Below are positions 1,562-46,325 of a stretch of 64,000 nt of DNA, one piece after another. The notes beneath the pieces were generated by a model. It was not told the origin of the DNA. It saw only the letters and a program-made list of their open reading frames with translations, and ran no database searches. Numbering within the stretch: position 1 is the first letter of the stretch; every line of letters starts with the position of its first letter. Made by a program: the position numbers and the translations under genes. This DNA comes from an uncultured Victivallales bacterium (GTDB lineage: Bacteria > Verrucomicrobiota > Lentisphaeria > Victivallales > UBA1829): contig CALXRI010000005.1 of the NCBI GenBank assembly GCA_944390795.1, positions 84,842 to 148,841 of the forward strand, given 5' to 3'.

Positions 1562-1984
1562 TCACTCCCAGTTCGTGATGTCGGCGTTCTCGCCTTCGCC
1601 GCCAGGCTGGCCGTCGGCGCCGTAGCTCATGATGTCAAACTCGCGGTGTTCGCCGGGATACACGTAAATGTAGTCGTTGCCCCAGGGATCCTTCGGCACC
1701 GAAGGCTGGAGATAGGGGCCGTTCCATTTGGCGTTCTGATCGACGTTTTCGACCAGCGCACGGAGTCCGACGGTCGAATCCGGATAACTCCCGACATCCA
1801 GCCGGAAGCCGGTCAGAGCCTCCTCCAGAAGCTTGATCTGGGTCCTGGCGGCGCCGACATTCGCCTTCTTGACATAGTTCAGATAAAGCGGCGTCGCAAT
1901 GGACGCCAGCGTGACCAGAATAATGATCACGACGACGACTTCGATCAGGGTGAAGTCCGTTCTTTTCCATCTCTTTCTTCTCAT
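1562..1984 (-). CDS. gspG: major pseudopilin GspG
   Basis: MRRKRWKRTDFTLIEVVVVIIILVTLASIATP..., later DPWGNDYIY and SYGADGQPGG, which are typical GspG signatures. The track ORF (to 2548) is over-extended. ATG at 1984 overlaps the gspF stop (ATGA). Confidence 0.93.
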   Translation of the reverse strand: MRRKRWKRTDFTLIEVVVVIIILVTLASIATPLYLNYVKKANVGAARTQIKLLEEALTGFRLDVGSYPDSTVGLRALVENVDQNAKWNGPYLQPSVPKDPWGNDYIYVYPGEHREFDIMSYGADGQPGGEGENADITNWE

Positions 1985-3198
1985 ATCTTGGGTCCTCCTT
2001 GACTGATTGAGTTGATTTCCATCATAGCCACAAAAATCGATACCACGACAATCAGAACCACGAGCGCCAGAAACACAATCACCGCCGGCTCGAACAGACT
2101 CAGCAGGCGCTTGATCTTCAGGCGCGTGTCGTTTTCCAGATGGTTCGCGATGCGCGAAAGCATCTCGCCGACGGTTCCGGACTCCTCGCCGACCCGCAGC
2201 ATCGGCACCATGCCCGCGGGCACAAACACATTTCCCGCAAGGGCGGCGGAAAGTTTCGCGCCGCCCTTGAGCTTGCGCGAGATATCGCTGAAAGCCTTTG
2301 CCACCACGGGGTTGGAAAGAATCCTCCCGGAGATCCGCACCGTCCGGATGATCTCCACATGATTTGCGATCAGAATCGAAAGGGTGCGGATGTATTTGCA
2401 CATCTCCAAATCCACGATGATCCGTCCGAACAGCGGCAGCGAGAGCAGGAATCTGCTGTAATTGTAGCGGAACGCCTCCTCCCCGAAAAATTTCTTGAGT
2501 CCGGTCCATGCGCCGATCACCAGGCACGGAATCACCCACCATGCCCACGAGGCAAAGGCGCTGACCCCCAGCAGAAAGTTCATCGAGGGCGGCATTTCCC
2601 GCCCCATGTCCTCGAAAATCTTCGCGAAACGCGGTACGAACACGGTGAACAGAAGCACCGTCACAATCAGCGTGATCGAAAGAATCGCAAGAGGATAAAT
2701 CGAACTTGAAATGATGAAATCCTTGAGTTCCTTGCTCTCCCCCATGAACTTGTAGAGCTGCCCGACCACTTCGGGGAGGCAGCCGGTCTCCTCGCCGCTC
2801 TCGATCAGATTCGCATAATATCCCGGAAAAAGCGACCCGTGGGACCGAACCAGTTCGGAGAATTTTTTACCTTCATGAAGCCCCTGCCGGAGAGAGTTGA
2901 CAAAATCGCGCTGTTCCGGATCGACCGCGCTTTCGGCAATGATCGCGAGCGCTTTTTCCAGCGGAATGAAGGAATCCAGAAGCGGGGCGAGCTGACGCGT
3001 GAAGTCATAGGTGTCAATTCTGGAACGGCGGAACATCAGGCCGCCCTTCCCGCCGACGGAAACCTCGCCGTAGAAGCGCACGGGCGTAACCTGGCGGCTG
3101 CGAAGCTTGCCAAGCGCCTCCTTCTCGTTGTCCGCCTCGATCAGCATTTCCTGCGGCTGTTCGCCCTTCGCCGCGGCAAGATATTTGTAAAGCCCCAT
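1981..3198 (-). CDS. gspF: T2SS inner-membrane platform protein GspF
   Basis: 405 aa with the duplicated GspF-type domain layout and three hydrophobic segments. Located between gspE and gspG. Confidence 0.9.
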   Translation of the reverse strand: MGLYKYLAAAKGEQPQEMLIEADNEKEALGKLRSRQVTPVRFYGEVSVGGKGGLMFRRSRIDTYDFTRQLAPLLDSFIPLEKALAIIAESAVDPEQRDFVNSLRQGLHEGKKFSELVRSHGSLFPGYYANLIESGEETGCLPEVVGQLYKFMGESKELKDFIISSSIYPLAILSITLIVTVLLFTVFVPRFAKIFEDMGREMPPSMNFLLGVSAFASWAWWVIPCLVIGAWTGLKKFFGEEAFRYNYSRFLLSLPLFGRIIVDLEMCKYIRTLSILIANHVEIIRTVRISGRILSNPVVAKAFSDISRKLKGGAKLSAALAGNVFVPAGMVPMLRVGEESGTVGEMLSRIANHLENDTRLKIKRLLSLFEPAVIVFLALVVLIVVVSIFVAMMEINSISQGGPKI

Positions 3199-3213
3199 CC
3201 GGAATCCTCCGCG

Positions 3214-4803
3214 TTACAGTTCGGCCGTGGAGCGGTTGAGCTCCTCCTGCGTGGTGACGCCCGCGGCCACCTTTGCCGCTCCGTCCTGCTGCAGGGTCAC
3301 CATGCCGTGCCGGACCGCGATCTCCTGCAGTTCAGAACTCGACGCATTGCGGTTGACCGCCGTGCGAAGCTCGTCATCCAGAAACAGCAGTTCAAAAATG
3401 CCGGAGCGCCCCTTGAATCCGCTGCCGTTGCAGCGGCGGCACTTCACCCCGTGTTCATCCGTGCCCTTTCCATGGCAGACGGTGCAGATTTTCCGGACAA
3501 GACGCTGCGACAGCACCCCGTAGAGCGCGGATGAGACGAGAAAGTTTTCCACGCCCATGTCCAGAAGACGCGTCACCGCGCCGACCGCGTCGTTCGTGTG
3601 CAGTGTGCTCAGAACCAGATGCCCGGTAAGCGCGGCATTGATCGCGATATCCGCCGTTTCGCGGTCGCGGATCTCGCCGACGAGAATGATGTCCGGGTCC
3701 TGCCGGACAATGCTCCGCAGACCGTTGGCGAAGGTCACGCCGATTTTTGCGTTGACCTGCATCTGGCAGAGTCCGCGCATCTTGTATTCCACAGGATCTT
3801 CGACGGTGATGATTTTCTTGCGGCTGTCATTGAGCTGGCTGATCACGCTGTACAGTGTCGTGGTCTTGCCGCTTCCGGTCGGGCCGACAACAAGAATCAT
3901 GCCGTGCGGAATGCTGATGAGGCGCCGGAACTGCGCGAGATGCTCCGGCGACATGCCGAGCGTCTGCAGGTCAAAGGAGATCGCATCCTGATTCAGAAGG
4001 CGCAGAACAATGCTCTCACCCGTCAGAATCGGGATCGTGCTGATGCGCATGTCAAGTTCGGTGCGCCCGAGCTGAACGTTCGTGCGCCCGTCCTGCGGGA
4101 GACGGCTTTCGGCGATGTTGAGCCCGCCGAGCAGCTTGATGCGCGACGCAATTGCGGGAAACTGGTTCAGCGGACAGCTGATGATTTCGGTGAGCACGCC
4201 GTCCACGCGGCAGCGCACCGCGACGTGATCCTCGTCCGGCTCGACGTGAATGTCGCTGGCGCCGAGCTCGATCGCCTGTGTGAAGATGTCGTTCACGAGC
4301 CGGACGATCCGCGCCTCGCCCGCCATCGTGCGGAGCGTGTTTTCGTCATCGACGTCGACCGCCGCCTCCTCGTCTTCCTCCTCCATGCTCTGCGCCTTGC
4401 TGAGAAGCCGCTCAAGAAACGTCCGGCGCACAAAACGGAACTGTGCCTTGCGCTTCCAGCTCTTCTGGACCAGGAACGTCAGCTGATCCAGCGAATAGGG
4501 ATCCACGACGAGGAACGTGATCGAATCCTCTTCCCATTCATAGGGAAGACAGACGTTCGCGTTGAAGAACTCCAGCGGCGCATTCGGGAACGGTTCCGGC
4601 TGACGGATTTCGTCCTCGGCAAGCACCGGAACGCCGTATGCCTCAGAATAAAGCGCAATGAGTTCGGGCTCGGTTGCGGCGGAAGACTGCACGAGCGCGC
4701 GGTCCCCCTCACGGGACGGCCCGGGAGAGTCGGGAAAACGCGCGGCGAAAAGCTGTCTGAGTTTTTCGTGCGGGGAAAGGCTCTTCACGTCAGAAGAGGT
4801 CAT
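3214..4803 (-). CDS. gspE: T2SS ATPase GspE
   Basis: Walker A GPTGSGKTTT, Walker B ILVGEIRD, His box GHLVLSTLHTN, tetracysteine CTVC...CRRC. Confidence 0.93.
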   Translation of the reverse strand: MTSSDVKSLSPHEKLRQLFAARFPDSPGPSREGDRALVQSSAATEPELIALYSEAYGVPVLAEDEIRQPEPFPNAPLEFFNANVCLPYEWEEDSITFLVVDPYSLDQLTFLVQKSWKRKAQFRFVRRTFLERLLSKAQSMEEEDEEAAVDVDDENTLRTMAGEARIVRLVNDIFTQAIELGASDIHVEPDEDHVAVRCRVDGVLTEIISCPLNQFPAIASRIKLLGGLNIAESRLPQDGRTNVQLGRTELDMRISTIPILTGESIVLRLLNQDAISFDLQTLGMSPEHLAQFRRLISIPHGMILVVGPTGSGKTTTLYSVISQLNDSRKKIITVEDPVEYKMRGLCQMQVNAKIGVTFANGLRSIVRQDPDIILVGEIRDRETADIAINAALTGHLVLSTLHTNDAVGAVTRLLDMGVENFLVSSALYGVLSQRLVRKICTVCHGKGTDEHGVKCRRCNGSGFKGRSGIFELLFLDDELRTAVNRNASSSELQEIAVRHGMVTLQQDGAAKVAAGVTTQEELNRSTAEL

Positions 4804-7183
4804 TGGACCAGAACTCCTTCGTTGTCATGATGCGCGGTTTGGAAAGGAACACGCCGTTCTTGCCGGAAAGATTGTCGTCAAAGTCGTTCAGCGCCTTCAG
4901 CGCGTCATTGTAACGTTCGATCAGCTCCTCGACCTTGTTGCGTTCATTGACAATGTAACCTGTCACGAGCACGAGGATTTCCGAACGGTCCACGGAGGCG
5001 TCGGTCGAACCGATCAGGCGCCGCAGAATGGGAATCTGGTTGATGATCGGAACAGAATCAAGCTTGTCGGTCTTCTGCTCCTGAATCAGTCCGCCGAGAA
5101 TCATCGTTTTGCCGTTGGCGATCGTCATGTTCGTGGTGATGCTGCGGTTGTTCTTGTTCGGGTTGGGATTTTCCGCCGTCGAATTTGTGTAATCGACGCT
5201 GGAAAGTTCCTGTTCGACCTTCAGAGAAATCAGATCGTTGCTGGTGATCTGCGGCGTCACGGTGAGAGTCACGCCGGTGGTCTCGTAGTCATAGGTATTC
5301 GACATGCTGCCGGAAGACGAGGTGTTTGTGATCGATCCGGTGATGACGGACACCTCGGTGCCGACATTGATCTTCGCCTCGGTATGACTGGAAACCAGAA
5401 GCTGCGGACTGGAGATGATTTTCGTGTTCCCGTTTCCGGCGAGAGCGCGGATGTAGGCGAATTTGTTGCTGGGATTGTCAGGATCGGAGAGAAAATAGCT
5501 GAAGCCTGTCTGACGGTTCGTCGTTCTGGTGATTTCCCCCGTATTTTCGTCCTTGACCGTCGAGGTGGTCGGCGTGGTGAGATCCGTGTAATTGGTTCCG
5601 ATCAGCGAATGGGTCTTGCTGCCGTTGTAGGCGCCGGAGAGCTCAATGCCGAACTGGGTGGATTCCGTCAGGGAAACCTCGACGATGAGCACCTGCAGAA
5701 GCACCTGCGCGGGCACGACGTCCAGACGGTTGAGCAGCGCCTTGATCGAGGCGTAAGTGCGCGGCGTCGTGCGGACCACCAGGCGGTTCAGAACGCCGTC
5801 GGCGAATACACGCACGGGGGTGTTGAAAACGTTGGAATTCCGGTCGGTCAGCGTATTTTCCGTGCTGTTGATGTCGATCTGCCCCGCAACGGTTCTTGTG
5901 TTGGTGTTCCGGTTTCGGTTCACCTGGGCGGAATTGACGGTTTCCATTTTCGTGTTGCCGGTCGTGGTGTCGATCGTCAGGCTGGATCCCTGAATGTCGT
6001 AGATGATCGAAAGCGCCTGCGCCAGCTGGGAGGCCTTGTTGTGGCGCACCTTGTAGACGAACACACGTTCCTGATCCAGAGAATTCGAGCTGTCAAGCAG
6101 ATCCACCCACTGCTGAATCTCCTGAATTGCCTCCTCGGTCGCGGCGGAAACCACGAGAATGTGAAGACGGTCGAGACCGTTGATCTGGACGGAGCCGGGC
6201 GTCTCGGTCTTGTCCGTGATCTGCTGGACGTTGAATCCGAGCACGGGCAGAATGGTTTTTAGCTCATTGGTCAGCTTGCTCGGGAGAATGTTCGAGCAGA
6301 GAATGATTTTGCGCTTCCAGGAGCTTTTCCCGCTCATATCAATGATGTCGAGCAGCTGCTTGAGCTTCGGCATGTTTGCACGGTCGTCGGCGATCATAAC
6401 CGCATTCGGACGCGTCAGTTCAACACAGACGGCATCCTTCCCGATGAACGGCCGGATCTGGTTGACGACCTCCTTGGCGGTGGTGTTCTTAAGCGGATAG
6501 TAAAAGAGCTCTCCGGTGCCGTCGCTGGCAAGGCGCGAGTCGGACTGCTTGGCGACCTTCGGCAGCGCCATGATCCGCAGAAGGGTTCCCTCGACCGTGA
6601 CGCCGGCTCCCGACAGGTTCAGCATCTTGTCGAAGGTGTCCCAGAGTTCGCGCCTCGTCATCTTCTGGTCGATGTTCAGCGTGACAACTCCCTTGAGATC
6701 GCTGTCCGCCAGAAAGTTGAATCCGAGCGCGTCCGCAAAGGAGGGGATCACGTCCAGCAGCGGCGCGCTGTTGAACACCAGATTCACGGTGATCTCCTCA
6801 TCGCCGTTCAGGATCACGAAATCGTCGTAAAAGTGAAGCGGAGTTTTCGGCGTCTCGGGCTTCGGCGCAAGAGCTGTCACGGGAATTTTTTCAGTTTTGC
6901 TTTTCAAAGTCGAGGGAAGCTCCCGCTCCGCATCGGTCTTCACCAGTTCCTCGTTGATGGATTCCGTCGCGCCGCGCACCTTGGAAATCTCCCTTGATTC
7001 CGTTTTCAGGAATGCGAAACGGTCGGCCTTTCCGGGTTCCTCCTTCTTTTCGGAGTCGTCCTGCGTGATCTCATCCAGATCCCTCTGAAGATGGGAACAG
7101 GACTGGAGAAGCAGCACGCCCAGCGACAGCGCGGCAATCCGGAAGATCCGGAGCATCATTCGATTTTCCACAGCATCAATCAT
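4790..7183 (-). CDS. gspD: secretin GspD
   Basis: 797 aa. N-terminal lipoprotein-like signal MMLRIFRIAALSLGVLLLQSC. C-terminal secretin motif GKTMILGGLIQE...VPIINQIPILRRLIG...ILVLVTGYIV. Confidence 0.9.
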   Translation of the reverse strand: MIDAVENRMMLRIFRIAALSLGVLLLQSCSHLQRDLDEITQDDSEKKEEPGKADRFAFLKTESREISKVRGATESINEELVKTDAERELPSTLKSKTEKIPVTALAPKPETPKTPLHFYDDFVILNGDEEITVNLVFNSAPLLDVIPSFADALGFNFLADSDLKGVVTLNIDQKMTRRELWDTFDKMLNLSGAGVTVEGTLLRIMALPKVAKQSDSRLASDGTGELFYYPLKNTTAKEVVNQIRPFIGKDAVCVELTRPNAVMIADDRANMPKLKQLLDIIDMSGKSSWKRKIILCSNILPSKLTNELKTILPVLGFNVQQITDKTETPGSVQINGLDRLHILVVSAATEEAIQEIQQWVDLLDSSNSLDQERVFVYKVRHNKASQLAQALSIIYDIQGSSLTIDTTTGNTKMETVNSAQVNRNRNTNTRTVAGQIDINSTENTLTDRNSNVFNTPVRVFADGVLNRLVVRTTPRTYASIKALLNRLDVVPAQVLLQVLIVEVSLTESTQFGIELSGAYNGSKTHSLIGTNYTDLTTPTTSTVKDENTGEITRTTNRQTGFSYFLSDPDNPSNKFAYIRALAGNGNTKIISSPQLLVSSHTEAKINVGTEVSVITGSITNTSSSGSMSNTYDYETTGVTLTVTPQITSNDLISLKVEQELSSVDYTNSTAENPNPNKNNRSITTNMTIANGKTMILGGLIQEQKTDKLDSVPIINQIPILRRLIGSTDASVDRSEILVLVTGYIVNERNKVEELIERYNDALKALNDFDDNLSGKNGVFLSKPRIMTTKEFWSNDLF

Positions 7184-11188: not shown

Positions 11189-14092
11189 TCAGCGGGGCAG
11201 ACACTTCACGCCGGCGATTTTTCCCTTGAAAAAGGAGATGCCGTTCTGGCCGGCGCCCAGCGCCGTCGCGCGCGGCAGCATGAGGCAGCCGGAGAAAGGC
11301 ACTTCCTTCCCGGGAAGTCCGTTGACCTCCACCCGCAGGGAGCTTCCGTCGAACAGAACACGGATCATGTTCCATTCCTTCGCCCGGAGTCCGTCCGCCG
11401 CGGCTCTTACCACCGCGGCGCGCTCACCTTTCCGGTAAAAGCGGTTGCCGGAGAACAGTGCAGCCGAAACCCTGCCGCCGGTGAACGTCAGATTGAAACC
11501 GTTGATTCCGCTGCTGAAAAGGGTTTCGGGGCGCTCCGGCAACGCATCCGGCATGGCTTTGAGTTCAAGTTCAAAACCGCAGTAAGGGGGAACCACATGC
11601 AGGGGCAGACTGACATAGTTGCAGTCCCGGAACTGCAGGCTCCAGCTTCCGTCGGGTTCCCGGACATACGCGGGCGTCTGATTTCCCACGCCTGGAAGAT
11701 TTGCGCGCAGGGAACGCCACGGGAGATTGCCGTAACCGGCCTCGCCGGAACCGTATCCTGTCGCGAGCGGAACAAATCCGCCGAGAATCCCGCTGTATTT
11801 GCTTCCCGCCGCGCAGGGAACCACAGAACCGTACCGCGGATGAAAACGATATTCAAATTCCGTGAGGAGATTCACGTCCGCCTCCACAGGAAACACCCGT
11901 TCCTTTTCCATGTCAAACACGTGAATGACACGGGTTGTGCCCGACGGTCGGTAAAGAGAAACGACGCTTCCCCGGTAAATCCCGTAATCCTCGTCGAGCG
12001 CGAGAATGGAGTAGACCGCATTTTTGTCCGAAGGACGGACAATCGCGGAAAACTCCGCAGTATTTTCGAAAAGCGGTTCCGGCATGGACACCTGGGACAG
12101 GAAACGGGAGATGACCAGATTGGAACCGTCCGGACCGCCGATTCCGGAAATCCCCTGTTTCATCAGATCCGCCGTCCGGATTCTGCCATGCATCGGAGGC
12201 AGATCCACGATCAGTTCACCGCTTTCCATATCCCGTCGCTTCATTGCCAGATAGACGGAAAATGGATACAGGCTGAATTCCACATTCCGGTAGAGCATCT
12301 TTCCATCCCGGAACCTGACGCCGCGGGCGCTTTGCACAGCCTCCGGGGAACAGTTCAGCGCAATCGCGCCGTTGAATATGCGTTTTTTCGAAGCCTGATG
12401 GGAAATGCTCAGAATGACGGTGTCATCATCCTCCTTCGGGAAGCTCCGCTTCGCATGGGAGTAAATGACATTGCTTCCCTCCAGAATCTCCGCACTGCGC
12501 AGTTTTTTCGGGGAGGAAACTCTTCCTTTCAGCAGCAGCGTCCCATCCGGTCGTCTTTCCGCCACGGCAAGCTCGCTCCGGATCCCTTTCGGAAGATCGC
12601 GCAGCGGGTGTTTCACCCATTTGTAATCCATGTTCCAGTTGGCGCGGATCTCAACCGGCGCCATGGCATCGGAAAAGACAAGGCGTTGTCCGTTCCAGGA
12701 TACGGAAAATTCCGGGCGGACGACCTGATGCCGGAGCAGTTCCGCACAGGGCATCCGGAACCAGGCGGAATCTGCAAGTTCGCAGCCGCGAAGAGAAAGA
12801 GGGGAAAAGGTTTTCACCGTATTTCCCCTGAGATCCTTCAGATGCGCCTCGATCCGGAACACCGTGTCGTCCCATATGCCGTCCGGGACATTTGCAACTT
12901 CCATTTCGAGCCATTCCCCCGCACTCAAAGTCCGGCGGTAGCTGACAATCAGATTGGGGATTGACAAATCGTCGCCGGGAAGCGGTGAAGGTTTTCCGCC
13001 GGCCAGCAGCGCCGCATAGGCCCGGACAATCCGCTGTGTGGAAAAAGAGTTGCGGACCGTCGGACGGAAATGGGTATGTTCGTTCTGTTCATCCCATTCC
13101 GTCATGACGATGAAATCAGGGCGGAGAAAACGCGCGGCCTCCAGCTTGTGCCGCAGGAAAGTCGTCCCCGTGCAGTCCAGGGTATGCGTGAAACGGTAGG
13201 AATTCGAATGTTCCGCAACCACGGCATAACCCAGTATTTTACTTCGAAACTCTTCCTCGGAATAAACACTGTTCAGAATCGGAAGGATGACCTGCCGTTC
13301 AAAATCCAGGTTGAATCTGCGTTTCCAGACGGAACTCCGGTCGCTGAAGAAAATTCCGTCCGCCGCGCGCAGCTCGGTGCGCAGCTCCTCCTTCATGCGT
13401 TCAATGGTTCTCCCGTCCAGTTTCCTGTTCGGCCGGAACGTCCTGAAACTCACATAGGGCAGGTAAAGAAAACGATCTCCATAACGCTCCCGGAGTTTCC
13501 GCCTGAGTTCCCTCGAATATGCCGGGGTTCCTCCGGGATAGCGGGTAAGGACAATTTTTCCGTTGATGCAGAAGACGTTGGGAGCCTTCATGGCAAGCCC
13601 CGCCATTTCCAGATCGGTTTCAAGCGGTTTTTTCCCCATTGGAACCAGCTCCACGAGAACAGGAAGCTCCGCGCCCTTCAGAAGTGAACGGGAAAAAAGA
13701 TCGCGCCGTCCGGAAGTCGCCGGGAAAAACGCCGCGCCGTCCATGCCGCCGAGGCGGATCGTTGCAGCCATCCGGCGATAGGCGGATTCATTGATGAAAT
13801 GCCGGGGATCATTTTTTTCCGCCAGCGAGGAATCCTGCATCAGAGGCCGATCCAGCCATTTATGCAGATAGTCGTCCCGTTCCAATCCGTATTTCAGCTG
13901 CGTCCGCACAAAGAGGAACGGCCGTTCCGTATGCGCCCGGCGGCGCGGAGCCTCCCGCTTCATGCGCTCAAGCGCAGCCGCGGCGTCCGGCGCAGGCGGC
14001 ATGCAGGGAAGATGACATTCCGCTCCGGAAGCGGAGGCGGTCAAAGCCGAAAGGATTCCTGTTAAAAGCAATCCGTAATGTTTCGTTTTCAT
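11189..14092 (-). CDS. large exported protein with C-terminal LamG/concanavalin-like domain; possible glycoside-hydrolase-like core
   Basis: ATG at 14092 with GGAG 6 nt upstream. Signal peptide MKTKHYGLLLTGILSALTASASG. C-terminal LRVEVNGLPGKEVPFSG...FFKGKIAGV is LamG-like. The motif IVMTEWDEQNEHTHFRP resembles GH71/GH99-type WNDYGE/NEWHE motifs (weak). Confidence 0.6.
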   Translation of the reverse strand: MKTKHYGLLLTGILSALTASASGAECHLPCMPPAPDAAAALERMKREAPRRRAHTERPFLFVRTQLKYGLERDDYLHKWLDRPLMQDSSLAEKNDPRHFINESAYRRMAATIRLGGMDGAAFFPATSGRRDLFSRSLLKGAELPVLVELVPMGKKPLETDLEMAGLAMKAPNVFCINGKIVLTRYPGGTPAYSRELRRKLRERYGDRFLYLPYVSFRTFRPNRKLDGRTIERMKEELRTELRAADGIFFSDRSSVWKRRFNLDFERQVILPILNSVYSEEEFRSKILGYAVVAEHSNSYRFTHTLDCTGTTFLRHKLEAARFLRPDFIVMTEWDEQNEHTHFRPTVRNSFSTQRIVRAYAALLAGGKPSPLPGDDLSIPNLIVSYRRTLSAGEWLEMEVANVPDGIWDDTVFRIEAHLKDLRGNTVKTFSPLSLRGCELADSAWFRMPCAELLRHQVVRPEFSVSWNGQRLVFSDAMAPVEIRANWNMDYKWVKHPLRDLPKGIRSELAVAERRPDGTLLLKGRVSSPKKLRSAEILEGSNVIYSHAKRSFPKEDDDTVILSISHQASKKRIFNGAIALNCSPEAVQSARGVRFRDGKMLYRNVEFSLYPFSVYLAMKRRDMESGELIVDLPPMHGRIRTADLMKQGISGIGGPDGSNLVISRFLSQVSMPEPLFENTAEFSAIVRPSDKNAVYSILALDEDYGIYRGSVVSLYRPSGTTRVIHVFDMEKERVFPVEADVNLLTEFEYRFHPRYGSVVPCAAGSKYSGILGGFVPLATGYGSGEAGYGNLPWRSLRANLPGVGNQTPAYVREPDGSWSLQFRDCNYVSLPLHVVPPYCGFELELKAMPDALPERPETLFSSGINGFNLTFTGGRVSAALFSGNRFYRKGERAAVVRAAADGLRAKEWNMIRVLFDGSSLRVEVNGLPGKEVPFSGCLMLPRATALGAGQNGISFFKGKIAGVKCLPR

Positions 14093-14094
14093 CT

Positions 14095-14880
14095 TCACTC
14101 CCAGGTGAAATATTTTTCCGTGACGGCGCTGTTCAAGTGCGTTTTTCCGTTTTTGAGATATCCCGTGTGCCCGTCGGCGAAAAGAAGATTGGTTCCGCCG
14201 CTGTGCAGATCGTGAATATACAGCCCGTTGGAAAAGGAGACATAGGAGCCGGCATTGAATTCCGTCTTCGTTTCGGCAAGAAGGAAACAGCTGGAAAATT
14301 TTTTCATTTCGGAGATCTTCACCGGAATCCAGCGTCTGGGATCTCCGGATCCGAGAACATTTTTATGGGAACCGACATAATTGTTGTTATAACCGTAACC
14401 GATGAAAGTCCATGACGCGGCGCCGCCCGGACCGACCGCATGGATGAAAACGTCAAGATCCCGATGAAAATTGGATTCCGGCGGCATGATTCCCGCGGCT
14501 GTGGGGCATTTATAAATTTTTCCCGTCGGAATGTACTTTTCCCGCTGGAACATCCATGCCCAGTTCCAGTAGTTCTTGTTGATTTCCCCCCCGCTCAAAT
14601 CGCTGAGATCCGCAGGGGGAAAAAAATCCCGGCTGTCACTGACGTAGGAATGAAAGGCGGCGCCGAACTGTTTCAGATTGCTGCCGCAGCTGATCCGGTG
14701 CGCGGCTTCTCTCGCCTTCCGGAGACCCGGCAGCAGCATGGATGCCAGAATCGCAACGATTGCAATCACAACCAGAAGTTCTACCAGTGAAAAAGATTTT
14801 CTCCGGAAAGCCGATGCCGCCTGATCCCGCACAACAAAAACGGAAACCGGATAGAACAAACATGTATGATGCCGCAGCAT
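14095..14880 (-). CDS. DUF1559 'H-X9-DG' protein with prepilin-type N-terminal methylation domain
   Basis: [24 protein letters not shown], and C-terminal [13 protein letters not shown] (H-X9-DG). ATG 14880 is preceded by GGGAGG. The stop lies 2 nt before the next gene's start. Confidence 0.85.
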
Positions 14881-14910
14881 GAAAAAAACCTCCCTGTCAG
14901 GCTTTTCCAT

Positions 14911-14993: not shown

Positions 14994-15887
14994 ATGAAAT
15001 CCTTTTCTGAAAAATGTCTGAAAGCGGCTGAATCTCTTCCGGATTTTGCCTATTCCGTTCCCGGATTCCCGGATTTTCCCCCGTTCATGCCGTACCGCAT
15101 TCAGTTTTATTACCGCAGGAGGAACCGGGACACCAATACATTTTTCCATAACCGCTACATCCTGGCATGTCTTCTTGCCGGAAATGCCCGGCTTGAAATC
15201 AATAAGCGCCTCTGCTCCCTGAAACCGCTCCAGCTGTATCTGGTTTTCCCGGGAGAGTCGCACAGGATTCTGTCAGGACAAGACGAAGGAAGTTCCATGC
15301 TGTTCTGTTCCTTCCATCTGCACGACGAGCAAAAAGCCATGGATGTTCTCCGGGGGACCATTCTGGAAAGCGATGCCGGAATCCGGCGTCTTCTGCTTTG
15401 CGCGCTCCGGGATTTCCTGATCCATTATCCCGAGGGGAATCGTGAGATCAATACGACGCCCTATCTTCTGGGTGAACTTCTGGAACGTCTGCGGGTGAAG
15501 AACTGTCCCGCGCCTCCGGAAACGTTCCGCAAGACGAATTATTCCGACGAAGGAAGCGAACTTTACCGGAAAATCTCCCGGTATATCGTGGAAAATCCGC
15601 ACCGGAAAATCACGATTGCGGAACTGAGCCGCCGTCTGGGCGTTTCGGCAAGCAATCTCAGAAGATGCTTCAAAAGACAAATCGGGAAAAGTCTGGGAAA
15701 GTATCTCCGGTCCAGAAGAATGATGTTCGCCGCGGGGCTCCTGCGATCCTCCGGTCAGAACATCAGCCAGATTGCCGCATTATGCGGGTATCGCTCCGCG
15801 GCGGCATTCTCCCGCGCATTCAAACGGGAGGAGACCCGTTACAGTCCATCCGAATTCCGTAAAAAAATCCGTGCGCCGCTTTCATGA
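14994..15887 (+). CDS. AraC-family transcriptional regulator
   Basis: C-terminal double HTH: ITIAELSRRLGVSASNLRRCFKRQIGKS...ISQIAALCGYRSAAAFSRAFKRE. Confidence 0.85.
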   Translation: MKSFSEKCLKAAESLPDFAYSVPGFPDFPPFMPYRIQFYYRRRNRDTNTFFHNRYILACLLAGNARLEINKRLCSLKPLQLYLVFPGESHRILSGQDEGSSMLFCSFHLHDEQKAMDVLRGTILESDAGIRRLLLCALRDFLIHYPEGNREINTTPYLLGELLERLRVKNCPAPPETFRKTNYSDEGSELYRKISRYIVENPHRKITIAELSRRLGVSASNLRRCFKRQIGKSLGKYLRSRRMMFAAGLLRSSGQNISQIAALCGYRSAAAFSRAFKREETRYSPSEFRKKIRAPLS

Positions 15888-17627
15888 TTTCGAAATGGTT
15901 TTCCCCCCCGGATGAAACCATTTCGGTACACCGGCGGCCCGCAGTTCCGCAATCTGCCGGGCATGTTCCGTGAGAATCTGTCCGCGGGACCAGTCAAGCG
16001 AAGGATCGCGGTACGGCGTACCGGCGGTGGACTCCAGCGCAATGCAACGGTCTTTCTCCCGCAGCGGGGACAGATGGTCAAGCGCATGAAGCGATGCAAC
16101 AGTTCCGCCGCGCTTCCGTCCGAACGGGACGGATTCTGAAACAAAAAAACCGGTCCGGAGCAGCGCCCCCAGAAACGGATAGGCGCTCGAATAGGCTGCC
16201 AGAATGCCGAAGGGATTCAGAACCCGTTTCAATGCGGCGAGAAAGTCCAGCGTCCAGAGCTCCGGGTTCCGGTCCGGGGAAAATGCGTCGAGGAAAATGA
16301 AATCAAACTTTTCACCGGTCTCCTGCACATAACGCCGCGCGTCGCCCCAGGCAATTTCGATCCGGACGAAGGCGCTCCGGTAACACCCGGCGGAAGCCAG
16401 TGTCTCAAGCACATCCTTTCGCGGGAAATCCGGCAGAGACAGCGCATTGCGCAGCGTATTGCGGTCCGATTCCAGAGAGATGCAGCGGAGCATGCCCGCT
16501 CCCGTATGTTCGGCAAGTTCCGTGAGAGCGGCCGCGTTGTATCCCATCCCGAATCCGACATCCAGAACCGTGACGGAGCCTCCTTCCTTCAGACGCTCCC
16601 CGATCCGGCAGGGCTCAATGTATTTCTTCCAGGATTCCGTCCGCGCACCGGCAACGCTGTGAAAATGCTGACGGTATCCGGGATGGTAGAGCGTATAGGA
16701 CCCGTCCTCCGTCCGCACCGCGCGGACTCCGTCGTCGCGTCCGGCGGCTCGAGACTCGAAAACCGTGCGGAACATGGAAAGAAACTGCCCTTTCTTCATC
16801 CACCACTTCGGCGCGATCACCTCGGAAGCATCCGCATCGGCGCAGAGGCGCATCACAATGGTCTTTTCCGGCAGAACGGAAAGAAAATCAGCAAGCGCAT
16901 CGGCATATTCGTATTCATTGAACGCCGTCACTTCGCCGTTGTGGAACATCCGCGCCATCTCCGTACCTTTCAGAACCAGAAGGTTGTGCACCTTGATCCC
17001 GGAAAAGGGAAGTGAAGCTATTTTTTCCGCGGTCGCGCGGAAATCCGAAGCCGTCTCGCCGGGCAGTCCGAGAATGACATGCGCGGCGACTTTGATCCCC
17101 TGCGCGTCCAGACGCCTCGCCGCATCCTCGACGGCGGCGAAATCATGTCCCCGGTTGATTCTCCGGAGGGTAAGATCATTGGCGCTCTGGACTCCAAGTT
17201 CCACCCAGACTTCATAACGGCGTGCCAGCGAAGCCAGATATTCCACACACTCGCCGGAAAGACAGTCCGGACGGGTCGCAATGAGAACGGCTCTGTAATC
17301 CGCCGTGCAAAGCGCCTCCTCATACAGATGCCGGAGAACGGACACTTCGCCATAGGTATTGGTGAAAGACTGGAAATAGGCCAGATAAGGACCGTCCGAC
17401 GCATACCGCTCCCGGACATAGCGGATGCCGCGCCGGGCCTGTTCCGCAAGACTCATGCCGGGCGAAAGATGCCTCGCCGCGGAACCGTTTCCGGCGCAGA
17501 AGGCGCACCCGCCGGAACCGTCCGGATTCCGGTTGGGACAGGAAAGTCCGAGATCGAACGGAATCCGCTGGAGCGGTTTTCCATAGCGTTCAGCAAGATA
17601 ATCCCGGAAAAAACGAAGCTGTTTCAT
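15882..17627 (-). CDS. fusion protein: TIGR01212/YhcC-type radical SAM domain + MnmC2/MnmD-type SAM methyltransferase domain
   Basis: N-terminal half has LSCPNRNPDGSGGCAFCAG (TIGR01212-type cluster motif) and ELGVQS. C-terminal half has DGSYTLYHPGYRQHFHSVAGARTES, VLDVGFGMGYN, FLDAFSPDRNPELWT and PFGRKRG (compare E. coli MnmC FLDGFAPAKNPDMWT, GFGRKRE). Confidence 0.8.
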   Translation of the reverse strand: MKQLRFFRDYLAERYGKPLQRIPFDLGLSCPNRNPDGSGGCAFCAGNGSAARHLSPGMSLAEQARRGIRYVRERYASDGPYLAYFQSFTNTYGEVSVLRHLYEEALCTADYRAVLIATRPDCLSGECVEYLASLARRYEVWVELGVQSANDLTLRRINRGHDFAAVEDAARRLDAQGIKVAAHVILGLPGETASDFRATAEKIASLPFSGIKVHNLLVLKGTEMARMFHNGEVTAFNEYEYADALADFLSVLPEKTIVMRLCADADASEVIAPKWWMKKGQFLSMFRTVFESRAAGRDDGVRAVRTEDGSYTLYHPGYRQHFHSVAGARTESWKKYIEPCRIGERLKEGGSVTVLDVGFGMGYNAAALTELAEHTGAGMLRCISLESDRNTLRNALSLPDFPRKDVLETLASAGCYRSAFVRIEIAWGDARRYVQETGEKFDFIFLDAFSPDRNPELWTLDFLAALKRVLNPFGILAAYSSAYPFLGALLRTGFFVSESVPFGRKRGGTVASLHALDHLSPLREKDRCIALESTAGTPYRDPSLDWSRGQILTEHARQIAELRAAGVPKWFHPGGKTISKS

Positions 17628-17654
17628 GACGGAACGGCATGCGCGGAAACGCGA

Positions 17655-18362
17655 TCAATGCACGGGAAGCAGTTTCTGCACGTTGTGCAGACGCTCGACA
17701 GCCGCCTGTGCTCCGTCCGGCGCACGGAAAACGGCGGTTCCGGCAACCAGCATGTTGGCTCCCGCGGGAACAATCCGCTTCGCGGTTTCGCCGTCGATCC
17801 CGCCGTCCACCTCGATGTGAAGCTTCGGATTGAGCTTCCCCGCCAGGGCGCGGATTTCCGCGACCTTCGGAATCATGTCCGCCATGAACGACTGCCCGCC
17901 GAAACCGGGCTCCACGGTCATCACGAGCACCAGATCAATCCTGTCCAGATAATTGACGACCGCGGAAACGGGAGTGGCCGGCTTGATGGAAATTCCGACG
18001 GAACAGCCTTCCGCGCGGATCGCCCGGATCGTCTCGTCCGGATTGTCATCCGACTCCAGATGAAACGTGATATGATCCGCGCCCGCGGCGGAAAACGGTT
18101 TGACGTATTTGATGGGACTGGTAATCATCAGATGGGTGTCGAACGTCAGGATGGAGTGCTTCCGGATTGCCGCGATCACAGGCGGCCCCATCGTGAGATT
18201 CGGCACGAAATGGCCGTCCATGATGTCGAGATGCAGCAGATCGGCGCCCGCGGCCTCGACGCGTTTGATTTCATTGGCGAGATCGGCAAAATCCGCGGCA
18301 AGCAGAGAGGGTGACACCAGCACCCTGCGCGCATCAAAGTCCGTGACCGGTTTTTTAATCAT
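17655..18362 (-). CDS. rpe: ribulose-phosphate 3-epimerase
   Basis: LHLDIMDGHFVPNLTMG, VMTVEPGFGGQSF, EVDGGI. Confidence 0.92.
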   Translation of the reverse strand: MIKKPVTDFDARRVLVSPSLLAADFADLANEIKRVEAAGADLLHLDIMDGHFVPNLTMGPPVIAAIRKHSILTFDTHLMITSPIKYVKPFSAAGADHITFHLESDDNPDETIRAIRAEGCSVGISIKPATPVSAVVNYLDRIDLVLVMTVEPGFGGQSFMADMIPKVAEIRALAGKLNPKLHIEVDGGIDGETAKRIVPAGANMLVAGTAVFRAPDGAQAAVERLHNVQKLLPVH

Positions 18363-19314
18363 GTTCGTTATCCTTGTGCTTGTGATTTCGGTTGCAGTCG
18401 AGCCAGCGGCGGTGCGCCCAGAGCCACTGATCGGGATATTTCCGGATCAGTTCCTCGAACGCATTGGAGTAAAGCTGGGTGATCTCCCGGATGTCATGTT
18501 CCTTGTCTCCGGTGGGCGTGTAGCGGATCGGCGCCGTTCCGGTAAGCTTGAAGTGATAGCTGTCATCCTCCCGGACCGCAAGGATCGGCAGAATCGGGTG
18601 TCCGGTTTTCAGATGCAGCAGCGCAACCGTCATATGCGCCCTTGCGGGATGCCCGAAAAACGTGATTTCCACACCTTCGCGGCTGGTCGCATGCTGATCG
18701 GAAACGACAGCAATGGAATCTCCCCTGTTCAAGGCGGCAAGCAGAGGCCGGATTCCCTTTTCCTTGGAAACGGTCGTATGCTTCCTGCTCATGCGGTGCG
18801 CATAGAAATATTCCCCGAGCTTCCGGTTGGCCAGGGGACGCATGATCGAGCAGAGGTTCTGACCGGAAAACATCGTGTAGATGTTGCCGGCAAGCTCCCA
18901 GTTCCCGAGATGTGCGGAGGCAAGAATCGCCGTGACCGGATGTTCCGGATCCATGATTTTGTCCAGTTCCGGGGAATCGGAGGCATAACGCAGATGTTCA
19001 CGGAAATTCTCAGGCGTCACAATCTGGTCGAATTTCACGACCTCGACGAAAACCTTCACCATATGACGGAAATTGGCTTTTGCCAGCGCCCTCGCCTCCG
19101 GGAGCGTGGTCCGGATCCCGCTGTGCAGGATGTGGGCAATCGCCCGTTTCCGGTGTTTGAAATCCAGAAGATAGAAAAACCAGGCACAGACGTTCGCCAG
19201 CGCATAAGCCTGTTTCAGGCTCAGCGCACGGACCAGAAGCGGCAGAATCAGAAAGAGCCGGTATTCGGCTTCCATCAGAAAGGCGTTTTCCGTTTTTTTC
19301 TTCTTGTTTCCCAT
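18355..19314 (-). CDS. lipid A biosynthesis (LpxL/HtrB-family) lysophospholipid acyltransferase
   Basis: N-terminal TM and the catalytic-region motif SAHLGNWE. About 320 aa, typical of the family. Confidence 0.7.
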   Translation of the reverse strand: MGNKKKKTENAFLMEAEYRLFLILPLLVRALSLKQAYALANVCAWFFYLLDFKHRKRAIAHILHSGIRTTLPEARALAKANFRHMVKVFVEVVKFDQIVTPENFREHLRYASDSPELDKIMDPEHPVTAILASAHLGNWELAGNIYTMFSGQNLCSIMRPLANRKLGEYFYAHRMSRKHTTVSKEKGIRPLLAALNRGDSIAVVSDQHATSREGVEITFFGHPARAHMTVALLHLKTGHPILPILAVREDDSYHFKLTGTAPIRYTPTGDKEHDIREITQLYSNAFEELIRKYPDQWLWAHRRWLDCNRNHKHKDNEHD

Positions 19315-20788: not shown

Positions 20789-20992
20789 ACGGCGGAATCC
20801 GTCCGAATTCCCCGATTGACGTAATATATCCCCGCACGCGGGAGATTGCCAGCCCGAAGCTCAGAAAGTTACATTTTTTGCGCGCTTTTTAATCTATTAT
20901 TACATTTTTGTAATAAATCAATTTTTCATTTTTCATCCATGCAAAGACATAATCAATTGATATCAATAGAGTTACAGCAATACATAAAAAGT

Positions 20993-21007
20993 TGGCATAT
21001 CTTTTGC
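20993..21007 (+). promoter_or_regulatory. sigma54 (-24/-12) promoter upstream of glnK-amt
   Basis: TGGCAT-ATCTT-TTGC matches TGGCAC-N5-TTGC. It lies 54 nt upstream of the glnK ATG, in an AT-rich region containing the palindromes ATCAATTGAT and TTGATATCAA (20952-20966). Confidence 0.6.
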
Positions 21008-21060
21008 TAATAAATAGAACCATACAAAAAAGAAATGCGCGGCAGGAAAGGAGTCTGACC

Positions 21061-21402
21061 ATGAAACTGATCATCGCCTACATCAAACCCGAACGGCTGA
21101 ACGCCGTGAAACAGGAACTTTATGCAAGGGAAATCTTCAAAATTTCCGTCACGAACACACTGGGCTGCGGTCAGCAGAAAGGATATGTTTCCACGTATCG
21201 CGGATCGGAAATCGAAGTGAATCTTCACAAGAAAGTGCGTCTCGCCATCGGCGTGAATGACGAGTTTGTAGAAAAAACCGTGGAAGGGATCATTGCCGGC
21301 GCACGCACAGGATACATCGGAGACGGAAAAATCTTCATCCTCCCGATGGAGGAATGCATCCGGATCCGGACCGGCGAACGGGGACGCGACGCCATCGGAT
21401 GA
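21061..21402 (+). CDS. glnK: P-II nitrogen regulatory protein
   Basis: [20 protein letters not shown]..., T-loop [21 protein letters not shown]. The track ORF start (20992) is trimmed to ATG 21061. Confidence 0.92.
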
Positions 21403-21457
21403 ATTCAGCAACCGTTTTTCCATCAAAAAATCAAGACACATGAAAAAGGAGTTTACC

Positions 21458-22774
21458 ATGAATCGAACGAAATTTCCTCTCTGCACGCTCATGCTGTGTC
21501 TCGCGGCATGCGCCGGAGCCGCGGAGGCCGGGACATCGGCGGAAACAGCAAAGGAAGCGATGTTCACCGTGAACAATCTCTGGATCATGATCGCGGCAAT
21601 GCTCGTATTCATCATGAATCTGGGATTCGCCACGGTGGAGTCCGGACTCGCCCGGGCCAAAAACTGCACGAACATTCTCTTCAAAAACCTGATGGTCCCG
21701 GCAATCGGCATTCTGACGTTCGCGCTCTGCGGATTCTCGCTGATGTATCCGGAAGGGCACTGGACGCTTTCCGGGATTCTGGGGTGGAACGGCTTCGGTC
21801 TTGCCGCGCCCGCCGGCGCGCCGGAAGGATACAACGGAACATTCACATACTGGACGATGTTTTTCTTCCAGAGCATGTTCGCGGCAACGGCGGCGACGAT
21901 CGTCTCGGGAGCGGTCGCGGAACGGATCAAACTGAATGCGTTCCTGATCTTCACGCTTCTCTATGCGGCGCTCGTCTATCCGGTGATCGGATCATGGGGC
22001 TGGGGCGGCGGCTTTCTGGATAAAATGCACTTCCACGACTTCGCCGGATCGACCTTCGTTCACAGTGTCGGCGGCTGGGGTGCGCTTGCGGGCGTGATTC
22101 TTCTGGGGCCGCGCATCGGCAAGTTTGTGAACGGGCACAGCATGCCGATCATGGGGCACAGCATGCCGCTGGCGACAATCGGAGTATTTCTGCTCTGGTT
22201 CGGATGGTTCGGATTCAACGGCGGCTCGGTTCTGAGCGCGGACCCGGAAAAGGTCTCCTATGTGCTGGTGACAACAACGCTCGGAGCGGTTGCGGGAATT
22301 GTCGCGGCGATGCTGGCAAGCACGGTCTTCCTCAAAAAACCGGATCTCTCCATGACGCTGAACGGCTGTCTCGCCGGACTCGTCGGAATCACGGCGGGCG
22401 CGGACTGCGTAAGCATTCCCTCCTCGCTCGCAATCGGTGCAGTCGCGGGCGTCATCGCGGTCGGAAGTGTTCTGCTTTTTGACCGCCTCCGCCTTGACGA
22501 TCCGGTCGGCGCGCTGTCGGTTCATCTCTGCGGGGGGATCTGGGGAACGCTTGCGGTCGGGATCTTTTCCACGAATCCGGAATACACATTCCTGACCCAG
22601 CTTGCGGGAGCGGGCTGCGCGGCGCTTTCCTTCCCGTGCGCCCTTGCAATCTTCTGGGTTCTCAAAAAGACGATCGGCATCCGGGTCTCCGCGGACGAGG
22701 AGCTGCGCGGACTGGATCTCGGCGAACACGGCATGGAGGCTTACGCGGGATTCCAGATCTTCAGCAATCAGTAA
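21458..22774 (+). CDS. amt: ammonium transporter Amt
   Basis: Signal peptide MNRTKFPLCTLMLCLAACAGAAEA with AAGGAG RBS. Amt motifs FATVESG, DFAGSTFVHSVGG, FGWFGFNGGS, HLCGGIWG. Confidence 0.92.
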   Translation: MNRTKFPLCTLMLCLAACAGAAEAGTSAETAKEAMFTVNNLWIMIAAMLVFIMNLGFATVESGLARAKNCTNILFKNLMVPAIGILTFALCGFSLMYPEGHWTLSGILGWNGFGLAAPAGAPEGYNGTFTYWTMFFFQSMFAATAATIVSGAVAERIKLNAFLIFTLLYAALVYPVIGSWGWGGGFLDKMHFHDFAGSTFVHSVGGWGALAGVILLGPRIGKFVNGHSMPIMGHSMPLATIGVFLLWFGWFGFNGGSVLSADPEKVSYVLVTTTLGAVAGIVAAMLASTVFLKKPDLSMTLNGCLAGLVGITAGADCVSIPSSLAIGAVAGVIAVGSVLLFDRLRLDDPVGALSVHLCGGIWGTLAVGIFSTNPEYTFLTQLAGAGCAALSFPCALAIFWVLKKTIGIRVSADEELRGLDLGEHGMEAYAGFQIFSNQ

Positions 22775-42695: not shown

Positions 42696-42781
42696 TGTCC
42701 ATTCCTTTATTGTTTTGGGATTGAAAGAAAAAGTGCACATGCAAAGATAAGGAAATATGGCACGCGGCAATAAAATATCAA

Positions 42782-42806
42782 TATGGAAAAACAGGAGTTT
42801 TCCATA
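42782..42806. promoter_or_regulatory. inverted repeat in the AT-rich nrdJ upstream region
   Basis: TATGGAAAA-(7 nt)-TTTTCCATA, about 90-110 nt upstream of the nrdJ ATG. Function unknown. Confidence 0.25.
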
Positions 42807-42900
42807 CTTTTTTTCCGAAAATTTTTCTTTTGCAGGTTGACAAATCAAAAAGTGCGATTATACAACCCTTGGTATAGGACCGGGAAACAGACCACAACCT

Positions 42901-44819: not shown

Positions 44820-46325
44820 TTATTTTTGTTCGTGGAAGACGATGGCCTCGAAAACCGTGAATTTCGCATCCGGCATCTTCCATGCGTCCTCTGCCAATCC
44901 CGCCTTGCGTGAAAGATATGTCAGGGTTTCCGGCAGGTCCCATCCCTGTTCCGGCGCGACCTGCGGCAGAAACACAGCCGATCGTCCGTTCTTCGTAATC
45001 GTCATCCCGTGTTTTCCGATCACGATGTCTTTCCAGGAGGCAACCGGCTTTGCCGGCGTCAATGCGGAAATCTCAATCGTCACGCGCCTGAGCTCTTCCG
45101 GTGACAACTGCGGGAAACGCGGATCGCGGAACGCCGAATCCACCGCACGCGCCGTCACCGCCTGATACAACTCACGGAAAGGTTCGATCTCCCCGATGCA
45201 GCCGCGCAGATTGTCGCCGATATTGAGCGTCACAAAACATCCCGCGACCTTCTTCATGTTCTCCGTCGCCTCGGCACGGAACAGATCGCTGCGCGGCGCT
45301 TTCCGATGTTCAAACACATATTCAATCGCCCGCCGCGCCATGGACAGAAGCGTCCGCTTCTCCTGAGCGGAAAGAAAATCCTCCGCAGCGGACTCTTCGG
45401 GAACGCCGCCCCACTCCCCCGTGACAACTCCCGAAACATAGCTGACGCAATGCGAAAAATCCCGGCTTTCCGCCGAAGACGTCGTATAGTGAAGCAGTTC
45501 CACGCGGGCCGTCTCCGGAAGCATGTAAAGAAGAATCCGGATCGGCGCCTCACCGCAGATCGTCGCTCCCGTTTTACGCAGATACGAGCCAAAAGCGGCG
45601 GGATCCTTCTTCCGGATGCATTCAAATGCCCCGAGGTCGAGTTTCCGCAGATTCTCCTCGATATCCGTCCGGAACGGCGTGTAGTCGAAATTCTCGCCGA
45701 AATGAGTGAAGTCGGAACTGATGAGAACAAGCGTCTCATGATCCGTGATCCGTTTCAGCGCCTCCGCCGCCGTTTTTGCTGTTCTGTCATCCAGACGCCC
45801 GACGACAATCGGAACGATACGGAGCTCATTTCCAAGCGCAACCTGAAGGAATGGAAGCTGAATCTGCACGCTGTGCTCTGTTCCGACGATCCGGTCGTCC
45901 GCAACAACAAATTTCTGATTCCGGAGCGTCTGAATCGCCTCCTTGTCCATCGCGAGTGCGCCAAGCGGCGTCTTCATGCCGTCCGCACCGGACGGAATGC
46001 AGATGCGGTTCTCAAGGTAAACGCGATGCGCGGGACCAAGAATGATGACACGCTTATATTGCTTCCCGGAAACCGCTTTTGCACCGTATGCGGCGGTCGG
46101 ACCGGAATAGGCATATCCGGCGTGCGGCTGAATGATTGCAATTGTTTTTTCCGGCATTCCGGCGGGCAGTTCGGCACGCGCGATCCAGGTGGAAATCTGT
46201 CTGGAAAGCTCCTTCGGATTTCCGGAATACCAGGAACCGGCGATCGTGCTTTCCAGAAGATTTCCGCCCATCAACGGCCCTGTCACCGTAATGCCGGCGG
46301 CAGCGAATAATGGATTCATGGACAC
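44820..46325 (-). CDS. fusion of MEMO1-family (AmmeMemoRadiSam protein B) and AMMECR1 (protein A) domains
   Basis: N-terminal: AGSWY, IIQPHAGYAYSGPTAAYG, GTEHSVQIQLPFL, SSDFTHFG. C-terminal: GCFVTLNIGDNLRGCIGEIEP, FRDPRFPQL, HGMTITKNGRSAVFLPQV. Confidence 0.85.
   Translation of the reverse strand: MSMNPLFAAAGITVTGPLMGGNLLESTIAGSWYSGNPKELSRQISTWIARAELPAGMPEKTIAIIQPHAGYAYSGPTAAYGAKAVSGKQYKRVIILGPAHRVYLENRICIPSGADGMKTPLGALAMDKEAIQTLRNQKFVVADDRIVGTEHSVQIQLPFLQVALGNELRIVPIVVGRLDDRTAKTAAEALKRITDHETLVLISSDFTHFGENFDYTPFRTDIEENLRKLDLGAFECIRKKDPAAFGSYLRKTGATICGEAPIRILLYMLPETARVELLHYTTSSAESRDFSHCVSYVSGVVTGEWGGVPEESAAEDFLSAQEKRTLLSMARRAIEYVFEHRKAPRSDLFRAEATENMKKVAGCFVTLNIGDNLRGCIGEIEPFRELYQAVTARAVDSAFRDPRFPQLSPEELRRVTIEISALTPAKPVASWKDIVIGKHGMTITKNGRSAVFLPQVAPEQGWDLPETLTYLSRKAGLAEDAWKMPDAKFTVFEAIVFHEQK

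Follow-up and report, generated by a model that had tools for sequence, protein, structure and literature searches.

An mnmL-mnmC2 fusion gene in an uncultured member of the gut Lentisphaeria and its probable role in oxygen-independent tRNA modification

Introduction

Can a single polypeptide complete the 5-methylaminomethyl-(2-thio)uridine, mnm5(s2)U, at position 34 of tRNA without oxygen? The question is raised by a 581-residue open reading frame (ORF) of an uncultured Victivallales bacterium, located in a 64,000-nucleotide stretch of contig CALXRI010000005.1 that was analyzed as a whole and is called the window here. In this ORF the original prediction had recognized a radical S-adenosylmethionine (SAM) domain of the TIGR01212 family (YhcC of Escherichia coli, YtqA of Bacillus subtilis) joined to the methyltransferase domain of MnmC (MnmC2/MnmD). 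We find the gene to be one more ortholog in the published MnmL-MnmC2 fusion class, from an uncultured gut member of the Lentisphaeria, and its product is very probably a bifunctional, O2-independent counterpart of MnmC that makes mnm5(s2)U in a bacterium of strictly anaerobic type.

Fusions of YtqA to MnmC2 have been described in three COG genomes and 70 InterPro entries (Jaroch et al., bioRxiv 10.1101/2023.12.21.572861), and together with the clustering of ytqA and mnmM they led to the identification of YtqA as MnmL (10.1101/2023.12.21.572861). The published list contains Victivallis vadensis A0A2U1AFG2 (570 aa) and Victivallales CCUG 44730 WP_106054069.1 (569 aa; Data S3/S4), Lentisphaerae GWF2_38_69, GWF2_45_14 and GWF2_44_16 (A0A1G0YX84, 579 aa), and also Kiritimatiella glycovorans (597 aa), Sulfurospirillum, Malaciobacter species and others (10.1101/2023.12.21.572861). 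The fusion and the inference from it are thus already known, for this bacterial class among others, and the suggestion that the present gene offers an independent genomic argument for a role of TIGR01212 in xm5U34 tRNA modification has to be withdrawn, since the fusion was the original published argument for MnmL and the list already holds orthologs of the class. That link has previously been made, exploited and largely confirmed by experiment. MnmL activity in B. subtilis and Streptococcus mutans has been shown genetically (10.1101/2023.12.21.572861), and reconstituted E. coli YhcC (MnmL) converts tRNA carrying 5-carboxymethylaminomethyl-2-thiouridine (cmnm5s2U) to tRNA carrying 5-aminomethyl-2-thiouridine (nm5s2U) in vitro in a SAM-dependent reaction (2026 preprint 10.64898/2026.05.18.725915). 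According to the same preprint, MnmC1 requires O2, hence YhcC substitutes for it anaerobically; the anaerobic completion of mnm5s2U in E. coli still requires the MnmC2 domain, MnmL and MnmC2 working in trans; and genomes with MnmL only are skewed towards anaerobes (10.64898/2026.05.18.725915). The chemistry of MnmC2 has been shown for Aquifex aeolicus (PMC3527978) and for E. coli.

Gene structure and domain architecture

The coordinates of the gene and its parts are given in Table 1. An ATG at 17640, upstream of the start codon, is out of frame. At the other end, the 6-nt overlap with the convergent AraC gene that had been noted before is present and is formed by the two stop codons alone, which abut as TCA and TGA at 15882-15887 without any shared sense codon. 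Pfam analysis of the 581-aa protein returned PF04055 (Radical_SAM), PF16199 (Radical_SAM_C) and PF05430 (Methyltransf_30) in this order from the N- to the C-terminus, and the protein is confirmed as an MnmL-type radical SAM domain joined to an MnmC2 methyltransferase domain. Chance does not account for the matches, since their E-values lie between 1e-84 and 4e-26 and all but one of the 120 best clusters retain the architecture. No FAD (flavin adenine dinucleotide)-dependent oxidoreductase (DAO/MnmC1) domain was found in the protein with Pfam or NCBIfam, and the models of the bifunctional MnmC, NF002480 and NF002481, matched the methyltransferase part alone, with 76 bits (cutoff 540) and 51 bits (cutoff 600), respectively. 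The protein therefore falls outside the canonical FAD-type bifunctional MnmC family.

The radical SAM half

Residues 6-294 matched positions 4-293 of the 302-position NCBIfam model TIGR01212, 'tRNA modification radical SAM protein MnmL/YtqA', with 284 bits, well over the equivalog cutoff of 180. Within this region Pfam located Radical_SAM at residues 39-202 (57.7 bits) and Radical_SAM_C, an extension common to Elp3-like enzymes, at residues 209-285 (72 bits, gathering score 31.9). The atypical cluster motif on which the original assignment had relied, CPNRNPDGSGGCAFC, was recovered in the checked translation; its three cysteines are invariant in an alignment of 65 ortholog sequences and satisfy the Cx(n)Cx2C pattern with a long first spacer. 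By score, cysteine motif and PF16199 domain, the N-terminal half can be assigned to the TIGR01212/MnmL family. Its nearest solved structures, over residues 108-271, were Elp3 radical SAM domains (phmmer against PDB), and Foldseek likewise matched the N-terminal half of the predicted model to radical SAM domains of Elp3 (E-values between about 1e-13 and 1e-10), with no MnmL/YhcC structure among the Foldseek PDB matches to the fusion model.

The methyltransferase half

PF05430 covered residues 414-513 with 91.8 bits (gathering score 22), and phmmer against PDB aligned residues 297-559 with positions 42-303 of the 308-residue chain of A. aeolicus MnmC2 (3VYW; E=5.1e-41, 35% identity). The match to E. 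coli MnmC was weaker (E~1e-8); by these alignments, the domain is closer to the stand-alone Aquifex type than to the type embedded in MnmC. Residue roles described for the Aquifex structure (PMC3527978) were transferred via the 3VYW alignment (Table 1). The predicted ligands of the cofactor and the catalytic residues G358, G360, G362, N364, E386, A430, D447, F449, N454 and E456 are invariant among the 65 orthologs, D429 and P451 are kept in at least 90% of them, and the DxFxP signature is present as D447-A-F449-S-P451. Both motifs that had been aligned by eye, FLDAFSPDRNPELWT and GRKRG, were found in the checked translation, the latter at residues 503-507.

No other methyltransferase family scored better than MnmC2 on this half in Pfam, NCBIfam, phmmer or Foldseek searches, so that this refuting outcome named in the original prediction did not arise. 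An extra C-terminal domain in residues 514-581 was considered and rejected, as the alignment with Aquifex MnmC2, including its C-terminal extension, runs to residue 559; what lies beyond is a short basic tail (…LR..GVPKW) conserved in the orthologs. Thus, the identification of the C-terminal half as MnmC2 is supported by Pfam, motifs and fold, the score of one NCBIfam model, NF033855, staying below its cutoff.

Distribution of the fusion and predicted structure

Eighteen contigs of independent metagenome assemblies encode the identical 581-aa product, with the same neighbours each time. In a collection of 5.8 billion proteins, 119 of the 120 best clusters join the three Pfam domains in one polypeptide; the clusters are 50-91% identical to it and 565-635 aa long, and the named ones come from metagenome-assembled genomes (MAGs) of Lentisphaeria. 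Using tblastn, residues 1-571 were matched in one frame in at least 20 GTDB species genomes, the nearest species representative being 81% identical for the fusion protein. This survey of its phylogenetic range, which the original prediction had proposed, places the fusion mostly in Lentisphaeria/Victivallales, the other full-length matches coming from one Kiritimatiellota MAG, one 'Verrucomicrobia' MAG and one Helicobacter species (33% identity); in Desulfobacterota and anammox Planctomycetota the radical SAM half alone was matched. Two of our homologs belong to genomes of the published list: P0088, with 51% identity across 98% of the query, is the GWF2_44_16 protein of 579 aa, and locus L008 comes from GWF2_45_14. 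Database names within the class are inconsistent. The Lentisphaeria ortholog P0012 is called 'tRNA 5-methylaminomethyl-2-thiouridine biosynthesis bifunctional protein MnmC' by NCBI yet has no FAD/MnmC1 domain, so this name is misleading, and other orthologs are entered as 'TIGR01212 family radical SAM protein' or 'uncharacterized protein'.

AlphaFold2, given the alignment of 65 orthologs, produced a confidently packed two-domain model with a mean predicted local distance difference test score (pLDDT) of 93.6 and a predicted template modelling score (pTM) of 0.85. Its C-terminal half was matched by Foldseek to 3VYW (E=2.6e-22, target TM 0.74-0.75) and to the N-terminal domain of E. coli MnmC (2QY6, target TM 0.71). 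The segment between the domains looks like a linker because it is unconserved and carries inserts of roughly 50-60 aa in two orthologs (P0060 and P0069); here the pLDDT dips to ~80, the lowest outside the C-terminal tail, which ends in six residues modelled as disordered. The two domains might pack rigidly and pass the anticodon loop between the radical SAM and methyltransferase sites while the tRNA stays bound (true substrate channelling), a tentative idea that we regard as unlikely. If true, it would distinguish the fusion from E. coli MnmC, whose independently acting domains show no channelling, and a compact fusion with rigidly packed domains would be the best route to a first MnmL structure bound to tRNA.

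Proposed function and alternative explanations

In the pathway that we propose, MnmE/MnmG would install cmnm5 on (s2)U34 of split-codon-box tRNAs. The MnmL domain would carry a [4Fe-4S] cluster on C30/C41/C44 and cleave SAM reductively to a 5'-deoxyadenosyl radical, which would strip the carboxymethyl group and turn cmnm5(s2)U into nm5(s2)U, an activity ascribed to the fused domain by analogy with its characterized homologs. With D447 as general base, the MnmC2 domain would then transfer the methyl group of a second SAM to the nitrogen of the free amine, yielding mnm5(s2)U; on the same analogy, one polypeptide would perform both steps. The earlier view that MnmL takes the place of the FAD-dependent MnmC1 while MnmC2 methylates thus gains support from the domain assignments and the published chemistry of the homologs.

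We favor this bifunctional role because the TIGR01212 and PF05430 cutoffs are passed, the active-site residues are intact and the fusion is conserved at 50-91% identity, and because the homolog chemistry, an identical published interpretation and the gene content of Victivallales CCUG 44730 agree with it. In the closed genome of this relative, MnmA, MnmE and MnmG are each present once and the fusion is the sole COG4121 member (10.1101/2023.12.21.572861, Data S1/S3); since it is the only one, CCUG 44730 has no MnmC1. The combination of a missing canonical mnmC with mnmE and mnmG present, raised in the original prediction, therefore holds in this relative according to the published tables, and we infer that MnmE, MnmG and MnmA are encoded in the source genome as well. 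An O2-independent MnmC analogue would suit an anaerobic gut lineage, and the fusion agrees with a recent proposal in which the radical SAM enzyme MnmL serves anaerobes in the role that the O2-dependent MnmC1 has in aerobes.

Several points weigh against a bifunctional enzyme of this kind. The MnmL/MnmC2 combination 'awaits experimental validation' in the words of Jaroch et al., in whose sequence similarity network (SSN) the fused subfamily forms subgroup 8 (10.1101/2023.12.21.572861). Although both domains were found when the protein was searched against Pfam and NCBIfam, NF033855, the equivalog_domain model of MnmC2, gave 102.6 bits with a cutoff of 136 (residues 314-511, model positions 2-206 of 209). 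Neither mnmA, mnmE, mnmG nor any tRNA-modification gene was present in the ortholog neighbourhoods examined, i.e. 25 full-length-type loci of Lentisphaeria and the Planctomycetes-Verrucomicrobia-Chlamydiae (PVC) group plus those of P0069, P0095 and P0110. The 64-kb window has no tRNA genes (ARAGORN), and an NCBIfam scan of its larger ORFs found no mnmE, mnmG, mnmA, mnmC1 or mnmM, a result that is uninformative for the whole genome.

The low NF033855 score would suit a Methyltransf_30 paralog acting on some other amine of tRNA or rRNA instead of nm5U34, as would the versatility suggested by MnmC2 domains that are fused elsewhere to the unrelated partners TGT, YhdJ and MqnD (10.1101/2023.12.21.572861). 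We consider this very improbable given the end-to-end similarity to Aquifex MnmC2 (E=5e-41) with conserved cofactor-binding and catalytic residues, the fusion to an enzyme making the expected substrate, and the lack of a second COG4121 protein in the closed relative's genome. Slightly more credible, though still improbable, is a true MnmC2 whose radical SAM partner performs a different reaction on the same or an adjacent nucleotide, for instance another xm5U-type radical chemistry like that of Elp3, with nm5U supplied directly by MnmEG through its ammonium route, as in Aquifex, which manages with MnmC2 alone (PMC3527978). The nearest solved folds of the N-terminal half do belong to Elp3, and the radical SAM role in the fused subfamily is assigned by analogy to homologs. 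However, the same half that passes TIGR01212 by more than 100 bits reaches only 62.8 bits with the Elp3 NCBIfam model (cutoff 350) and has no GNAT/acetyl-CoA domain, MnmL of B. subtilis and YhcC of E. coli share one activity despite their divergence, and operation of the ammonium route in vivo has been questioned (10.64898/2026.05.18.725915). An artefact in which a sequencing or assembly frameshift or the loss of a stop codon joined two adjacent genes was weighed because MAG-derived sequence can carry such errors. Nothing was found in its support, and it is refuted by the identical product from independent samples, the three domains shared by nearly all of the best clusters, the single-frame tblastn matches and the more than 70 such fusions in published lists (10.1101/2023.12.21.572861).

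Genomic neighbourhood

Table 1. Features of the fusion gene and its flanks, with residues numbered in the 581-aa product
Feature	Position in window	Strand	Residues	Basis
Complete mnmL-mnmC2 fusion gene	15882..17627	-	1-581	ORF list: one uninterrupted frame, ATG start, TGA stop at 15882-15884
Radical SAM domain (MnmL/YtqA/YhcC, TIGR01212)	16746..17627	-	1-294	TIGR01212, Pfam, Elp3-like fold
Predicted [4Fe-4S] cluster motif CPNRNPDGSGGCAFC	17496..17540	-	30-44 (C30-x10-C41-x2-C44)	Translation checked
Variable interdomain linker	16713..16745	-	~295-305	No conserved columns in ortholog alignment
Aquifex-type MnmC2 (DUF752/Methyltransf_30) domain, followed by short conserved basic tail ending GVPKW	15951..16712	-	~306-559	3VYW match, PF05430
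Methyltransferase motif I LDVGFGMGYN, predicted AdoMet-carboxylate binding	16536..16565	-	355-364 (Aquifex L101-N110)	Alignment
Motif IV FLDAFSPDRNPELWT	16251..16295	-	445-459 (D447-x-F449, N454, E456)	Translation checked, aligned to Aquifex
Motif I GxGxGxN, predicted AdoMet carboxylate contacts			G358/G360/G362/N364	Aquifex mapping
Motif II Glu, predicted ribose hydroxyl contact (Aquifex E133)			E386	Aquifex mapping
Motif III Asp, predicted adenine contact (Aquifex D174/A175)			D429/A430	Aquifex mapping
Predicted catalytic D-x-F (Aquifex D193-x-F195; D193 = E. coli D178, essential catalytic Asp)			D447-A-F449	Aquifex mapping
Predicted adenine contacts (Aquifex N200, E202)			N454, E456	Aquifex mapping
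rpe	17655-18362	-		TIGR01163, 263 bits
lpxL-like acyltransferase	18355-19314	-		NCBIfam scan
AraC-family regulator, convergent with fusion gene	14994-15887	+		Confirmed in domain scan

The fusion gene starts 27 nt after the rpe stop codon and probably shares a transcript with rpe and the lpxL-like gene, both of which immediately precede it in the same orientation. The shared orientation of the three genes, described in the original prediction, is real, and no functional meaning attaches to it, the order being patchy across loci. The order is kept in 8 of the 25 full-length-type Lentisphaeria/PVC loci, listed as L005, L006, L009, L011, L014, L021 and L024 together with L007, which retains rpe only; the locus of P0069 has it too, and it is missing in about sixteen other Lentisphaeria loci and in P0095 and P0110 (closed chromosomes with unrelated neighbours). 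We accordingly rejected the idea that an operon ties the fusion gene functionally to rpe, lpxL or AraC, the order being kept in about a third of the loci and the other neighbourhoods being unrelated. Gene context says nothing on function, because the order is patchy and tRNA-modification neighbours are missing. On one contig with the identical fusion protein (L004, 2362-2973), the upstream rpe is annotated as 203 aa long rather than 235 aa and has only 85% identity in the aligned part; a strain-level insertion or deletion, or an error in the assembly of rpe, may be the reason.

Just downstream of the AraC gene lie a gene for a prepilin-type N-terminal methylation/SBP_bac_10 protein (14095-14910, minus strand) and a 969-aa ORF without a Pfam or NCBIfam match (11189-14098, minus strand), a pair kept in all four of four contigs with the identical fusion protein. 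Such pairs of a prepilin-type gene and a large ORF are typical of PVC-group genomes. Further along, the type II secretion genes gspF, gspE and gspD stand in a row (1981-7183, minus strand); all score under their curated equivalog cutoffs and are therefore read as divergent PVC-type versions.

Elsewhere in the window, an adenosylcobalamin-dependent class II ribonucleotide reductase (NrdJ) is encoded at 40356-42848 (minus strand) and a NuoF-like/NuoE-like pair without the remaining complex I at 56892-59374 (minus strand). Such a pair on its own would be typical of modules for an electron-bifurcating hydrogenase or a formate dehydrogenase. NrdJ and this pair fit an anaerobic lifestyle and therefore also fit an O2-independent MnmL in place of MnmC1. 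A second fusion was noted at 44820-46325 (minus strand), where a 501-aa ORF joins Memo/MEMO1 (AmmeMemoRadiSam system protein B, residues 26-300) to AMMECR1 (system protein A, residues 325-497); since neither Pfam nor NCBIfam recognizes the flanking ORF at 42901-44574 (minus strand), the three-gene system lacks an adjacent radical SAM partner here. Finally, a P-II nitrogen regulator gene adjoins that of the ammonium transporter Amt at 20992-22774 (plus strand), and the overlap of their longest ORFs at 21293-21402 suggests that the true amt start lies further downstream.

Comparison with known systems

The closest known systems are the YtqA/MnmC2 fusions of Jaroch et al., with which the present protein shares the domain order (radical SAM N-terminal), length class and phylum; architecture and motifs are alike, and only the sequence differs, at 50-60% identity to named members. 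E. coli YhcC and B. subtilis YtqA belong to the same TIGR01212 family and have the same Cx(n)Cx2C motif and proposed reaction, but they are single-domain proteins, whereas here MnmC2 is covalently attached. In B. subtilis MnmL is paired with the unrelated methylase MnmM, and in E. coli its partner, acting in trans, is the MnmC2 part of MnmC. The DUF752/MnmC2 protein of A. aeolicus (3VYW) is 35% identical over the whole domain, including the C-terminal extension, and motifs I-IV and the catalytic DxF are alike; it stands alone and is thought to use the ammonium route, whereas the present MnmC2 is fused downstream of the demodifying enzyme. E. coli MnmC (MnmC2-MnmC1; 3AWI, 3PS9) follows the same two-step logic in one polypeptide and has a homologous methyltransferase domain, but in reversed order, with the methyltransferase at the N-terminus, and its demodification falls to an FAD oxidoreductase domain that depends on O2 and has no relation to radical SAM enzymes.

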